Assembly: GCA_951406725.2 (NCBI GenBank)
Contig: OX597824.1
Coordinates: 9,796,001 to 9,860,000 of the forward strand
Source of the DNA: Octopus vulgaris
Lineage: Eukaryota
Length of the DNA stretch: 64,000 bases
Reading direction: 5' to 3'
The translations under genes were made by a program, and so were the position numbers. The notes beneath the pieces were generated by a model. That model was not told the origin of the DNA and searched no databases. It saw only the letters and a list, made by a program, of their open reading frames with translations. Positions 3,007 to 62,384 of this stretch are shown piece by piece (positions within the stretch are counted from its first letter, which is position 1; each line of letters starts with the position of its first letter).

Positions 3007-3445
3007 TTTCTTTTCTACTCTAGGCACAAGGCCCAAAATTTTTGGGGGAGTGGGGGAACCAGTCGATTAGATCGACCCCAGTACGCAACTGGTTCTTAAT
3101 TTATCGACCCCAAAAGGATGAAAGGCAAATCGACCTCGGCGAAATTTGAACTCGGAGCGTAAAGACAGACGAAATACCACGAAGTATTTCGCCCGGCGTG
3201 CTAATGCTTCTTATTTCTTTATATTGCCCACCAGGGGCTAAACATGGAGGGGACAAACAAAGACAGACAAAGGGGTTACGTCGATTACATCGATCCAGTG
3301 CATAACTGGTACTTTATTTATCGACCCCGAAAGGATAAAAGGGAAAGTCGACCTCGTCGGAATTTGAACTCACAACGCAACGACAGACGAAATATGGCTA
3401 CGCATTTCGCCCAGCGTGCTAACGCTTCTGCCAGCTCGGCGCCTT
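3007..3445 (-). mobile_element. SINE family A composite (A1 copy joined to A2 copy)
   Basis: Same architecture as 151-587; TSD cagtgacggt(a/g)c(g/c)ct at ~2993 and ~3446. Confidence 0.85.
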
Positions 3446-6267: not shown

Positions 6268-6333
<66 letters not shown>

Positions 6334-6335
6334 AC
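5745..6335. repeat. Compound (TAT)n/(TGT)n/(TAG)n microsatellite with internal ~190-bp duplications
   Basis: Unit ttatctatttatttttattattatcacatttatcatc recurs at ~6032 and ~6218. Confidence 0.9.
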
Positions 6336-6462
6336 TATTGCTGGTGGTACTGTTCGGTAATACCGCACCTTTTACACAACTAATTCCAACATAAATTACT
6401 CATTCTCTTTGCTTCTTCCTTCCAGTTGCAGAGTAGTTGTTTAATGTGTTCCAATGCCCCCA

Positions 6463-6550
<88 letters not shown>

Positions 6551-7169
6551 GTATATATACACCGCATACATTTCATTCTTTTATAGCAGTTTTATGATCA
6601 ACGTTATATCATCTCTCAGCTCGTAAAATTGAATTCATACTTTCTCACCTCTAACCGAACGAGTTTTCACCTTATGTAGATCATACAATCACAAAATGAA
6701 ATACTAACACTTTATTTATTATAGAACATTATGGAAAGATATTTAAATTTTCTTTTCTATTTTTTTTTTTTTTTTTTTTCAGATTCCAATATTACATTTT
6801 CAGTATAATCTTCGTGTTATTAGTTGAGGTTTTGATTGCCAGAAACGGTATGTTTGTGAGATTGCACTCATATTTTCCCATCTTAACATTACATTTAATT
6901 AAAATATAAATATTACTGTTATCGCTGGCGGTTATGTTAAGTAAGAATATGGATGCTTTTAATTCCAACATTAATTACGACCCTAAGTACCAGTCTAGAG
7001 CAAAGAACGTCAGCCGAAATGCCTTCCGATGTCTATTCTAGTTCTGTACTTTCTGAGTTCAAATCCTGATTTCTCACAGAAAAGGGGTTACATTTCTTTT
7101 AAGAATTTTGACCGTTGGCCTGGGGCTAAAAATAACTACCAGCAAGTACTATATGACTTTTCTGTATTA

Positions 7170-11210: not shown

Positions 11211-11792
11211 TTCGATAAAACAAAAAGAAGAAGAAAAAGATTGTACTGTTATCTGCACGGTGACTTATAATACGAATCTTCAAAGATAAGAAATTTCATT
11301 ATTATGTCATTAAACAATGTGATTTTTAATTTAATAATTTATTAATGTCATGATAATAACGTTTCTTATCGTGGTATTATTAAAATATTAAATTAGAAAT
11401 TATGTATTTAATTCGTGACTGAAAAGTTATTACAGTAGCATTAAGAATTTTAAAATACTTTTTTAGAAATTCAAATCAAAATATTGAAATATCGCTGGTT
11501 TTAACATTGATATGAATATTGAACGCGATTTGTGGATGCTGGAGGGAGAAACTTATGTAGGTGAAATATTTAATTAATACTTTTTGGGGCTTTTTTTGTT
11601 TGTCTTTTTAATCAAACATATCATTGCGTTTGTACATTGACTTCCATTGTAGCATTCATGGAAGTTTCTTGAATTCAATCAAACACATTGTTTTGATCTA
11701 TTTCGTATGAATCGAACCGTCATTGATGCGAGAATACAATATGAATATATGAATTTAAGCGCCTGTATGTATGCATGTATGGTATGTGTGTA

Positions 11793-12023
11793 CGGTGGGG
11801 AGCTGGCAGAAACGTTAACACGCCAGGCGAAATGCTTAGCAGTATTTCGTCTGCCGCTACGTTCTTAGTTCAAATTCCGCCGAGGTCGACTTTGCCTTTC
11901 ATCCTTTCGGGGTCGATAAATTAAGGATCAGTTACGCACTGGGGTCGATGTAATCGACTTAATCCGTTTGTCTGTCCTTGTTTGTCCTCTCTGTGTTTAG
12001 CCTGCTGTGGGTAGTAAAGAAAT
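11793..12023 (+). mobile_element. SINE family A (tail A1)
   Basis: Full length; TSD ggtatg(t/g)gtg(t/c)acggtgg. Confidence 0.9.
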
Positions 12024-12038
12024 AGGTATGGGTGCACG

Positions 12039-20241: not shown

Positions 20242-20406
20242 TCGTCGACTATAACTTTATCGTTGCCATGACACATGCATGATGTCACCAAACGAAAGCT
20301 AATTTGCTCTCATTGACCAAATATCGAAGTCTGTAATTTTAAATTAATCAAAAATTCTTGTTAGTAAACTCGAGGGTGATTCGCCAGCTTTATAGTTCGA
20401 GATTAT

Positions 20407-20948
20407 AAGGCGGCGAGCTTGCAGAAACGTTAACACGCGGGGCGAAATGCGTAGCCGTATTTTGTCTACCGTTACGTTCTGGGTTCAAATTCCGCCGAGG
20501 TCGACTTTGCCTTTCATCCTTTCGGGGTCGATTAAATAAGTACCAGTTACGCACTGGGGTCGATGTAATCGACTTAATCCGTTTGTCTGTCCTTGTTTGT
20601 CCCCACTGTGTTTAGCCCCTTGTGGGTAGTAAAGAAAATGGTATTTCGTCTGCCGTTACGTTCTGAGTTCAAATTCCGCCGAGGTCGACTTTGCCTTTCA
20701 TCCTTTCGGGGTCGATTAAATAAGTACCAGTTACGCACTGGGGTCGATGTGTTTGACCCCAGATTCGCTTGACAACCGATGGTGGCGTGTTTACGTCCTC
20801 GTAACTTAGTGGTTCGGCAAAAGAGACCGGTAGAATAAGTACCAGACTTACAAAGAATAAGTCCTGGGCTAGATTTGCTCGACTAAAGACGGTGTCTGTC
20901 CTTGTTTGTCCCCTCTGTGTTTAGCCCCTTGTGGGAAATAAAGAAATA
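20407..20948 (+). mobile_element. SINE family A head-body-tail-body-tail dimer containing a family B fragment (~20750-20893)
   Basis: Tail runs into ggtatttcgtctgcc at ~20640; outer TSD tatagttcgaga(t/g)tat. Confidence 0.85.
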
Positions 20949-20980
20949 TATAGTTCGAGAGTATGGAAAAGTCACTATGA

Positions 20981-24284: not shown

Positions 24285-24868
24285 CTGGTTTGAAATGTTG
24301 GTACAGCGTTTTTGAGGTAGGGAATAAGTTGATTACATCGGCCCCAGTGTTCAACTGGTACTTATTTTATTGAACCCGGAAGGATGAAAGGCAACGTAGA
24401 CCTCAGAGGAATTTGAACTCAGAACGTAAGAACGGACGAAATACCTATTTCACAAGGGGCTAAACACAGAGAGGACAAACAAGGACAGACAAACGGATTA
24501 AGTCAATTACATCGACCCAAGTGCGTAACTGGTACTTATTTAATCGACCTCGAAAGGATGAAAGGCAAAGTCGACTTCGGCGGAATTTGAACTCAGAACG
24601 TAACGGCAGACGAAATACCTATTTCTTTACTACCCGCAAGGGGCTAAACACAGAGGGGACAAACAAGGACAGACAAACGGATTAAGTCGATTATATCGAC
24701 CCCAGTGCATAACTGGTACTTATTTAATCGACCCCGAAATAAGTCGACCTCGGCGGTATTTGAAAACAAAGTCGACCTCGGCGGTATTTGAACTCAGAAC
24801 GTAGCGGCAGACGAAATACGGCTCCACATTTCGCCCGGCGTGTTAACGTTTCTGCCAGCTCGCCGCCT
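24285..24868 (-). mobile_element. SINE family A triple nest
   Basis: Two tail-to-GGTATTTCG junctions (~24445, ~24617); innermost host has an A2-like tail. Confidence 0.85.
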
Positions 24869-25531: not shown

Positions 25532-25763
25532 AAGGCGGCGAGCTGGCGGAAACGTTAGCACGCCGGGCGAAATGCTTAACGGTATTTTGCTTGTCGTTAC
25601 GTTGTGAGTTCAAATTCCGCCGAGGTTGACTTTGCCTTTCATCCTTTCGGGGTCGATAAATTAAGTATCAGTTACGCACTGGGGTCGATGTAATCGACTT
25701 AATCCGTTTGTCGCTCCTTGTTTGTCCCTTCTGTGTTTAGCCCCTTTTGGGTAGTAAAGAAAT
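25532..25763 (+). mobile_element. SINE family A (tail A1)
   Basis: Full length; 20-bp TSD ggt(g/a)tggtttcagtgttatt. Confidence 0.92.
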
Positions 25764-25849
25764 AGGTATGGTTTCAGTGTTATTTCATTTAGAAATCCAT
25801 CCTTTCTTTCGTCTGCCGCTACGTTCTGAGTTCAAATTCCGCCGCGGTC

Positions 25850-32307: not shown

Positions 32308-32540
32308 AAGGCGGCGAGCTGGCAGAATCGTTAGCAAGCCGGGCGAAATGCGTAGCCGTATTTCGTCTGCCGTTACGTTCTGAGTTCAAATTCCGCCGAG
32401 GTCGATTTTGCCTTTCACCCTTTCGGGGTCGATAAATTAAGTACCAGTTATGCACTGGGGTCGATGTAATCGACTTAATACATTTGTCTGTCTTTGTTTG
32501 TCCTCTCTGTGTTTAGCCCCTTGTGGGTAGTAAAGAAACA
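32308..32540 (+). mobile_element. SINE family A (tail A1)
   Basis: Full length; TSD ggtagtgaagtgaca. Confidence 0.92.
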
Positions 32541-32720
32541 GGTAGTGAAGTGACAAAACTAAATTATGGTTTCACGGAATGTATCAATAATGCAAACCAT
32601 CAACGCTGAGTAGGGATATCAACCAGAGTAGCGGTAGCCATGTTGACTTAAAATAATTTTCTTGGGGCTTAACTAAGTATCTATCTTGAGGCTACGATCG
32701 TTGATAGACTCGGTATATGT

Positions 32721-33120
32721 ATTTCTTTATTTCCCACAGGGGGCTAAATATAGAGGGGACAAACAAGGACAGACAAAGGACCGACCAGTTACGCATTGGG
32801 GTCGATGTGATCTGGTACTTATTTAATCGACCCCGAAAGGATGAAAGGCAAAGTCGACCTCGGCGGAATTTGAACTTATAACGTAACGGCTGACGAAATA
32901 CCTATTTCTTTACTATCCACAAGGGGATAAACACAGAGAAGACAAATATACAGATTAAGTCGATTATATCGACCCCAGTGCGTAACTGGTACTTATTTAT
33001 CGACCCCGAAAGGATGAAAGGCAAAGTCGACCTCGGCGGAATTTGAACTCAGAACGTAACGGCTGACGAAATACCGCTAAGCATTTCGCCCGGCGTGCTA
33101 ACGTTTCTGCCAGCTCACCT
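32721..33120 (-). mobile_element. SINE family A dimer/nest
   Basis: Tail-to-GGTATTTCG junction at ~32900; outer TSD ctcggtatat. Confidence 0.85.
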
Positions 33121-33344
33121 CGGTATATTGGCAGCCATGGCTACTCGACTACATAATGCTCGACTCACGACTACATAATGCTTACTTTGTGGTAATAGCA
33201 AGATCTCAATCTTATGAGCTCGATTCTCGAATAGACTGAGTTTACGATTCGTTCATTAGACACGATAAAATAAGAACCAATCAAGTACTGATCAATGTGT
33301 TGTTGCATCTTTCACTTTTTTTCTGTCTTTGTAGAAAGACGGTG

Positions 33345-35654: not shown

Positions 35655-35921
35655 AGCTTTCTTTATTAGGCACACAGGGCCGAACACAGAGGGGACAAAA
35701 TACAATATAGAGCTTTGAAAATAGAAAAAAAAAGGGAGGAAAAAATTCCGATCAAAAGGGGTCGTGCAAAAAAAAAATGATCCGATCAAAAGGGATCCTG
35801 TATCACATAACAGAGTAAAAATGTAAAAAAAAAACAGATTACGTTTATCAGTGGAAAGAAAAGCCTACGAAAAAAAACTGCGGTAACCTCAGGCAGGGGG
35901 AAAAAAACATAAGAGCAAAAT

Positions 35922-50158: not shown

Positions 50159-50355
50159 TGTTTCTTTATTAGCCACACAGGGCTGCACACAGATAGAACA
50201 AATTACAAGGTAGAGCTTTTCTTTTTAAGGTTTAAAAAAAAAAAAAAAAAAAGGAAGGGGGAGTTTCGATCAAAAGGGATCGTAAAAGGAGAGAAAGAGG
50301 ACAAAAAAAAGGGGGGGGGTTAAAAAAAGGGGGAGAGGAAAAAAAAAAAAAAAAA

Positions 50356-50358
<3 letters not shown>
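50159..50358 (-). mobile_element. Tx1-like LINE 3' end (copy 1, ~200 bp) in (GATA)n
   Basis: Nearly identical to the 3' end of copy 2; GATA arrays on both sides. Confidence 0.85.
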
Positions 50359-51978
<1,620 letters not shown>

Positions 51979-61934: not shown

Positions 61935-62063
61935 CTACCGCAGGCGAAACTCATGGCAGGATTTTCACTGAAAACGCGAAAATCTGGAATAAATACTACA
62001 AGACATCCAACTCGACTTTCTTACAATTCCAACAATCCACCTAACCGTATTAGTCTTTTTTTT

Positions 62064-62360
62064 TTACTGACCCTGAAAGGAACAAAGGCAAAGTTGACCT
62101 CGGTAAGATTTGAACTTGGAACACCGAGGATCGGACCAAATACCTATTTCTTTACTACCCACAAGGGGATAAACACAAAGGAGACAAACAAGGACAGATA
62201 AACGGATTAAGTCGATTACATCGACCCCAGTGCGTAACTGGTACTTATGTAATCGACCCCGAAAGGATGAAAGGCAAAGTCGACCTCGGCGGAATTTGAA
62301 CTCAGAACGTAGCGGCAGACCAAATACCGCGAAGCATTCTATCCGACGCTCTAACACCAG
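62064..62360 (-). mobile_element. Young SINE A nested in an old diverged SINE A
   Basis: Tail aaagaaata followed by ggtatttggtcc...aagttcaaatcttaccgaggtcaactttgcc. Confidence 0.85.
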
Positions 62361-62384
62361 TTCCCCTTTATTTTACCTCTCTCT

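Follow-up and report, generated by a model that had tools for sequence, protein, structure and literature searches.

Self-joining of an octopus SINE at a fixed internal site, with probable replacement of the head of the older copy

Introduction

At positions 20407-20948 of a 64,000-nucleotide stretch of the Octopus vulgaris genome (the window), the complete tail of one SINE runs directly into the interior of another copy of the same family. The question raised by this locus is how such a join arises with one head and a single pair of outer target-site duplications (TSDs). The initial annotation proposed that this family, A, inserts by target priming at an internal GGTATTT site of resident copies and that the 5' end of the cDNA is resolved by homology, which would rejuvenate old copies and build multimers. 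No description of self-nesting of octopus SINE A was found in the open-access main texts searched.

Results

The family comprises A1, a SINE with a 233-nt consensus (majority sequence of 60 copies), and its older relative A2 (majority sequence of 48 copies). The two have positions 1-168 in common and differ in their tails, and the bodies of monomers diverge from the consensus by 0.035 for A1 and 0.091 for A2. A1 is short, non-coding, dispersed and flanked by TSDs, as is typical of LINE-dependent SINEs. A TSD was detected in 27 of 38 A1 monomers (median 16 bp); these duplications start immediately 3' of the tail, and their first bases are GGTA, AGAA or TATA. The target class tracks the tail subfamily, with type TG found at GGTA in 29 of 46 cases and type CA at AGAA or TATA in 32 of 43, and the first four target bases are predictable from the tail. 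The A1 monomer at 32308-32540 (plus strand), with a TSD beginning GGTA, serves as the reference for a normal insertion, and similar monomers lie at 11792-12024, 25532-25764 and 53330-53098. Among insertions whose TSD copies disagree close to the tail, the class motif is better matched by the 3' copy in five cases and by the 5' copy in one, with two ties. A T4 run is absent from both the A1 and the A2 consensus. ARAGORN found no tRNA gene in the SINE, and Rfam gave no match up to E = 5; box-like motifs were noted by eye, among them one in the head that resembles an A box. At three loci (L011, L129 and L150) A1 is inserted, with an ordinary TSD, at GGTAAG or AGAAGC within the head of a different SINE.

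All five junctions between an A1 tail and GGTATTT that had been claimed for the window are present in its sequence. On the plus strand GGTATTT stands at 20640-20646, after a tail that reads AAAGAAAAT, and on the minus strand at 24619-24613, 24445-24439 (where the tail has been shortened by a deletion), 32902-32896 and 62144-62138. Each of the arrays of the window has one head, and the outer TSD is single where visible, at 20391-20406 and 20949-20964 (16 bp, one mismatch) and around 33124-32720 (10 bp), also in agreement with the initial reading.

The array at 20407 lies wholly on the plus strand. Between the left (20391-20406) and right (20949-20964) outer TSD copies, the single head occupies 20407-20455, which corresponds to consensus 1-49 and carries the A1-type G45, with C50 following at 20456; G45 and C50 are each found in 0 of 20 A2 monomers. 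This head belongs to unit 1 (20407-20639), a full A1 of 233 nt with a tail of the GGTA-targeting class, and the junction at 20640-20646 equals consensus +50 to +56. Unit 2 (20640-20948) is a headless A1 body with a different tail type, and is inferred to be the resident. A resident unit 2 would lead one to expect what is seen, a first unit of the GGTA class with G45 and C50 and an outer TSD opening with TATA; both units are A1 and are not datable apart. Unit 2 is interrupted at 20750-20893 by a fragment of another abundant SINE-like repeat with BLAST matches elsewhere in the window. The fragment replaces about positions 160-177, displacing some 17 nt of unit 2, is without ends of its own and perhaps came from break repair or a template switch.

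The other arrays of the window are on the minus strand. The trimer at 24321-24868 has one head, +50 junctions at 24619 and 24445, and an old and diverged last unit. In the dimer at 32720-33124, with its +50 junction at 32902 and the outer TSD of 10 bp, both units share a private base at +61. At 62060-62378 a young body lies within a very old resident, with the junction at 62144. There the downstream unit is far more diverged than the upstream body (21% vs 2%), as had been claimed, a private G57 is found on both sides and marks an inner TSD, and the old head has been kept. This locus is an atypical, kept-head case and an exception among the arrays.

Self-joining at +50 is a real feature of the whole genome. 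Junctions were searched for in the genome that contains the window (2.8 Gb, 227 contigs) and in a sample of 1.264 Mb made up of the window and 120 evenly placed 10-kb stretches from 30 contigs. In the sample, 45 of 126 complete A1 tails are joined exactly to +50 and a further three with a small indel, while other joins lead to +17 (5), to the antisense strand (3) and to +179 of one array (3). Genome-wide, the exact 30-nt junction pattern has 17,341 matches, 14,406 with an A1-type body and 2,935 with an A2-type body; the reversed pattern, used as a control, has 0. Scaled up from the sample, the number of junctions would be about 10^5. The junction is nearly invariant, reading GGTATTT in 34 of 42, and the tally of junction positions gives a fixed peak at +50 and not a uniform spread along the SINE. 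Of 61 sampled sites with a GGTA-class insertion, 33 are +50 arrays, whereas 73 of 1,830 GGTAT motifs lie in the +50 context (p = 4e-30), so the motif alone is insufficient to explain the preference. Of the sampled arrays, 24 have two units, eight have three and one has four.

The relative age of the units was read from arrays ending in an A2 unit (old-last arrays). Their first bodies diverge by 0.036 and their last units by 0.086, close to the values for A1 and A2 monomers respectively. The first body is less diverged than the last unit in 31 of 37 such arrays, with four showing the reverse (p = 4e-6), and the upstream unit is therefore the younger, as the initial annotation had anticipated. 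Since the first and last units of A1-last arrays are equally diverged, those arrays are not datable by the age of heads or units. The outer TSD of old-last arrays is perfect in 3 of 24, as against 19 of 38 A1 monomers (p = 0.003) and 3 of 17 A2 monomers. It is detected at all in 8 of 24, as against 27 of 38 A1 monomers (p = 0.004), where detection hinges on the chosen score cut-off and shuffled flanks yield a TSD in 0-2 of 60.

The head of the resident was probably replaced in most cases and not kept, leaving a young head on an old locus with an old outer TSD. Over positions 13-49, differences amount to 63 of 1,048 sites in the heads of 31 old-last arrays, 73 of 1,442 in 43 A1 monomers and 84 of 664 in 20 A2 monomers, the last being a small reference; 22 of the 31 arrays come from pattern-selected loci and nine from the even sample. 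The old fraction of the array heads is 0.13 (95% CI -0.15 to 0.39), and in the bootstrap P(f>=0.52) is 0.004. The A1-type G45 is found in 7 of 31 old-last array heads and in 0 of 20 A2 monomers (p = 0.034). The A2 state at 63/65 is present in 2 of 31 first units and in 21 of 31 last units, and eight of the 31 last units show the A1 state. A second head is present in 1 of 105 seamless-type arrays. This count, like the comparison of head ages, covers arrays whose head aligns from position 13 or earlier, which is so in 105 of 129 +50 arrays.

A general rule by which the resident head is kept, the join falling inside the 15-bp overhang, was also considered. It was rejected, since an old fraction of 1 was reached in no bootstrap replicate and the first and last units of A2-last arrays share 0 of 22 rare variants at positions 50-66, although it fits single cases such as 62141. 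Head divergence climbs weakly with the divergence of the last unit (rho 0.19, p = 0.03, n = 121), which indicates that some heads have been kept (62141 and L017). Among the nine arrays with last-unit divergence above 0.15, four have a head above 0.2, some of them being simply headless, and there is some indication that kept heads are commoner with very old residents. An apparent old signal at 101-142 was an artefact of unmasked subfamily sites and disappeared after masking. Two of 20 A2 monomers (L119 and L158 (-2084)) have the A1 state at 63/65, and could be arrays collapsed to a monomer with a new head.

Double-headed forms with a duplication of about 15 bp, together with a LINE at the same site, support nesting by target priming. 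The +50 site followed by a complete new head has 157 exact matches genome-wide. Many of the 30 double-headed loci that were read open with an old head, which is followed by a site duplication of about 15 bp, then by a complete new A1 and finally by the old body, and at several of them (L274, L278, L289 and L290) private bases are found on both TSD copies. Tandem repeats of head plus TSD, with a period of 64-65 bp and up to eight units, are found at G000:C10:17996024-17996506 and at L282/L283, and grew from double-headed nests.

The LINE was reached through a pattern search for tails other than A1 at +50, which returned mostly mutated A1 tails, and a tblastn match among those loci. Its final 59 nt align with the A1 tail, and its 3' ends lie at the +50/51 sequence in 30 of 30 copies. 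In the five full-length copies, for which the 5' ends are known, the resident head (1-65) is directly upstream in 5 of 5. The LINE has no homology to the resident head, which these insertions keep. ORF2 contains the Pfam domains Exo_endo_phos (APE), RVT_1 and zf-RVT, and ORF1 contains zf-CCHC. An ORF2 with APE and reverse transcriptase, a CCHC ORF1 and a fixed target inside a repeat are traits of the Tx1 type, and from its domain layout the family presumably belongs to the Tx1 clade. All five full-length copies sit in C50 heads with the junction TTCGTATTTC, while SINE junctions read GGTATTTC. For this reason this LINE need not be the actual mobiliser of the SINE, and GGTA-class copies may owe their movement to a sister family. 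In three of the five insertions (L361-L365) the upstream TSD copy has T at +63 and the downstream copy has C, and T at +63 is missing from 28 of 30 downstream flanks of this LINE; its RNA may extend at least 14 nt into target-like sequence, or the 3' side may also have been converted.

The window itself contains, at 50785-51492 (minus strand), the 3'-terminal part of an ORF2 (zf-RVT) from a young LINE whose tail resembles the A1 tail. It was rejected as the +50 LINE, given that it belongs to a (TATC)n-targeting family and is a relative. That family, found at 35658-35699, 50161-51671 (minus strand) and L211-L240, inserts in microsatellites and stacks in tandem. It is very young, with all 150 scored matches 100% identical over 179 aa.

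Some units were added by local copying. The two units of A1-A1 dimers are near-identical in 6 of 29, and the remainder are as unlike as random copies. The first units have tails of the GGTA-class types (TG, TA) in 24 of the 27 tabulated, and the last units are mixed. Where an array has at least three units, neighbours other than the last differ by 0.056, compared with 0.098 for random pairs, and have rare variants in common, which indicates that local copying adds units later. About one fifth of the dimers and many of the longer arrays contain locally copied units. Homogenisation of the kind seen in satellites may hold in part for the longer arrays and for those six dimers, and does not hold for most dimers.

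A second self-insertion site lies at +17 (AGAAACG) and serves tails of the AGAA class, with 906 exact matches genome-wide; a second head is found in 0 of 16 dimers joined there. Two joins in the window, both on the minus strand, belong here: at 3011-3445 A1 is joined to an A2 body at +17, the AGAA site, and at 151-587 near +17 to +24. The claim of a GGTATTT site therefore stands as a fixed site at +50, amended by this second site and by a LINE with a related tail at +50. At L116 (about 6318-6728, minus strand) the A1 3' end recurs three times between two full copies, as 55-nt repeats that begin with the target sequence TATATTCC, which looks like repeated re-priming at one site.

Discussion

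Taken together, the data make it probable that a young A1 joins +50 of an older relative by target priming with LINE enzymes, and that the 5' end of its cDNA replaces the head of the resident. Insertion by target priming into an older resident, as originally proposed, is supported by the double-headed nests, by the LINE and by the ages of the units. The proposal that the 5' end is resolved by homology is supported by the contrast between the SINE, about 99% single-headed, and the LINE, which has no such homology and keeps the head in 5 of 5.

In the mechanism envisaged, a LINE endonuclease would make two nicks, one at +50 in the bottom strand and one near +65 in the top strand, as the positions read from the TSDs suggest. 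The SINE RNA would read past its own tail into the target duplication (GGUAUUUCG). This read-through is suggested by the 3' TSD copy being closer to the class motif (five vs one) and by the lack of a T4 run in the consensus. The 3' end of the read-through RNA would then base-pair with the nicked strand and prime, and reverse transcription would proceed to +1. The end of the cDNA would anneal to the resident head and displace the old strand over 1-65, much as a prime-editing flap does, with repair presumably favouring the cDNA, perhaps aided by the second nick near +65. The expected product is an array in which the only head is young, the older body has lost its own and the outer duplication is still the old one of the resident, and arrays of three or more would grow by repeated rounds and by local duplication of units, through unequal exchange or re-priming.

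Ordinary nested insertion would give two heads, one of which could later be lost by recombination between the 65-bp direct repeats. Double-headed forms do exist (157 exact matches) and arrays do recombine, as the similarity of adjacent non-last units (0.056 vs 0.098) indicates. Nonetheless, the double-headed class is about 1% (157 vs 17,341, and 1 of 105 in arrays) although the longer, 184-bp repeats persist, and a crossover equally likely anywhere in 1-65 would put the old fraction of positions 13-49 at 0.52, where 0.13 is observed (P = 0.004), which renders this route unlikely. Alternatively, a dimer could form in a single event, the reverse transcriptase copying one SINE RNA to +50, using the GGUAUUU microhomology to switch to another RNA at its 3' end and inserting the product into an empty site. 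The single young head, the single outer TSD and the restriction of joins to the sense orientation would all follow, and one of the relatives, relative E, appears from contig pieces and depth to be without the whole element at 20407, which two later events would fit equally well. However, the outer TSDs of A2-last arrays have decayed like those of A2 monomers (found in 8 of 24 vs 27 of 38 A1 monomers, p = 0.004), and targeting at the level of DNA is shown by the private bases in inner TSDs and by the LINE found at the same site. We regard a template jump as decidedly improbable.

Events between DNA copies, with no new insertion, could also produce such arrays, either by tandem duplication of the 184-bp unit or by ectopic gene conversion of a monomer by a dimer or its cDNA, which would bring in a head together with a unit. 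They are favoured by the units lying within 2.5% of each other in 6 of 29 A1-A1 dimers and by the sharing of about one fifth of rare variants between adjacent units where A1 is downstream (2% in controls), and conversion from a dimer donor would likewise leave a young head with an old TSD. Duplication, however, cannot place a young A1 unit before an old A2 unit, and is refuted as the main origin of most dimers, in which the two units are no more alike than random copies. Conversion would be expected to extend frequently beyond +50 and bring donor alleles into the last unit, but the A2 state at 63/65 is retained in 21 of 31 last units (eight show the A1 state). As a general explanation these events seem improbable. 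Descent of all dimers from one or a few dimeric master genes would account for the near-invariant junction (GGTATTT in 34 of 42). It is hardly credible given that the A2 last units differ pairwise by 0.164 (minimum 0.077, with 0 of 325 pairs below 0.05), much as free A2 copies do (0.181), and that first and last units occur in many subfamily pairings. The pairwise value of 0.164 refutes, for A2-last arrays, a single Alu-like dimeric master with shared diagnostic variants; the comparison of variants proposed in the initial annotation thus reveals no dimeric master, the downstream units being as unlike each other as free copies are. A few A1-A1 dimeric sources are possible.

Replacement of the resident head after target priming bears on the two remaining proposals. 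Rejuvenation of old copies holds at the level of sequence alone, in that a young head stands on an old locus. That nesting builds multimers holds for most dimers, which have independent templates, and has to be qualified where units are local copies, as in about six of 29 A1-A1 dimers and for many of the units in longer arrays. More tentatively, the family may run a self-renewing cycle, a form of natural prime editing. Read-through RNAs of nested copies would pair at +50 and their 5' homology arm would rewrite older heads at some 10^5 loci, each time creating a new source with the right guide, so that the choice of target would be inherited through the target duplication of the source.

The replacement of the head may work like the 'anneal' 5' junctions of R2, in which, according to the parts of the sources available, the 3' end of the cDNA pairs with upstream target homology to give a seamless junction without duplication, and joins imprecisely where homology is lacking (PMC11331408, PMC13580325). 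In the same way, the SINE junction is seamless with 5' homology (about 99% single-headed), and the LINE without it was joined with the head kept in 5 of 5. R2 is autonomous, has a restriction-like endonuclease, targets rDNA and borrows about 28 nt of host rRNA. In the octopus system, unlike R2, a non-autonomous SINE would supply the homology arm from its 5' end, insert into members of the same family and overwrite their older alleles. The partner LINE is not of the R2 family, since it has an APE domain and targets a SINE.

Crocodilian SINEU-3 and Tx1-Mar, as far as the available part of their description goes, have a common site within a Mariner element, with tandem insertions arising by sequential events (PMC4494074). 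The octopus case likewise pairs a SINE with a LINE, presumably of the Tx1 type, that prefers the same site within a repeat and forms tandem insertions; the target of SINEU-3 is, however, Mariner and not a SINE, its tandem copies sandwich a TSD, and the part of that account available describes no head replacement. In the blood clam, TSD-(SINE)n-TSD arrays are explained by unequal recombination in the portions available (PMC11481361), and the same holds for the SINE-derived satellites of reptiles (PMC10702118). As described there, they resemble the octopus arrays in having one complete head, headless repeated units and a single outer TSD. Their first units are, in those same portions, truncated at the tail, whereas the octopus arrays have complete tails, two templates of different age in most dimers and a LINE that shares the target.

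Young retro-copies also replace part of an older relative in the retrotransposition-mediated gene conversion of Alu and in L1 chimeras with endogenous L1. Those conversions are rare and not known to have a fixed site, while for the octopus SINE replacement is apparently the usual outcome at a fixed site that takes about half of the GGTA-class insertions. No direct account of Alu gene conversion was found in the literature searched, including the part of PMC1920257 available.

The ingredients are known separately, namely a site-specific LINE with a passenger SINE, annealed 5' junctions and retro-gene conversion. Here they combine, so that a SINE would edit its own older copies at scale and the resident head would usually be overwritten. 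The age of a copy judged from its head would be wrong for a large share of the family, and an intact promoter region could be restored to old loci with no seam to be seen. The genome would also preserve, on a very large scale, 5' junctions that were resolved by homology in insertions by an APE-type enzyme, and includes both a control without homology (the LINE) and an unresolved class of 1%. Such a record is relevant to the way non-LTR elements make their second strand and join their 5' ends, and to tools for RNA-templated insertion.

At the locus of the window the contigs of relatives are swamped by other SINE copies and give only a hint of an empty site in relative E, and at L097 they gave none that was locus-specific; an allele predating the insertion was read at neither locus. 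Relative E has much less contig depth, summed across the tail-to-+50 junction, than relatives A, C and D, depth not being equal to copy number; this is a weak hint that the burst of nesting post-dates the split from relative E. Tails of A2 enter A2 bodies near +52 or precede other A heads at L036 (7120), L076 (4065), L074 and L113, and the older subfamily may also have nested in itself.
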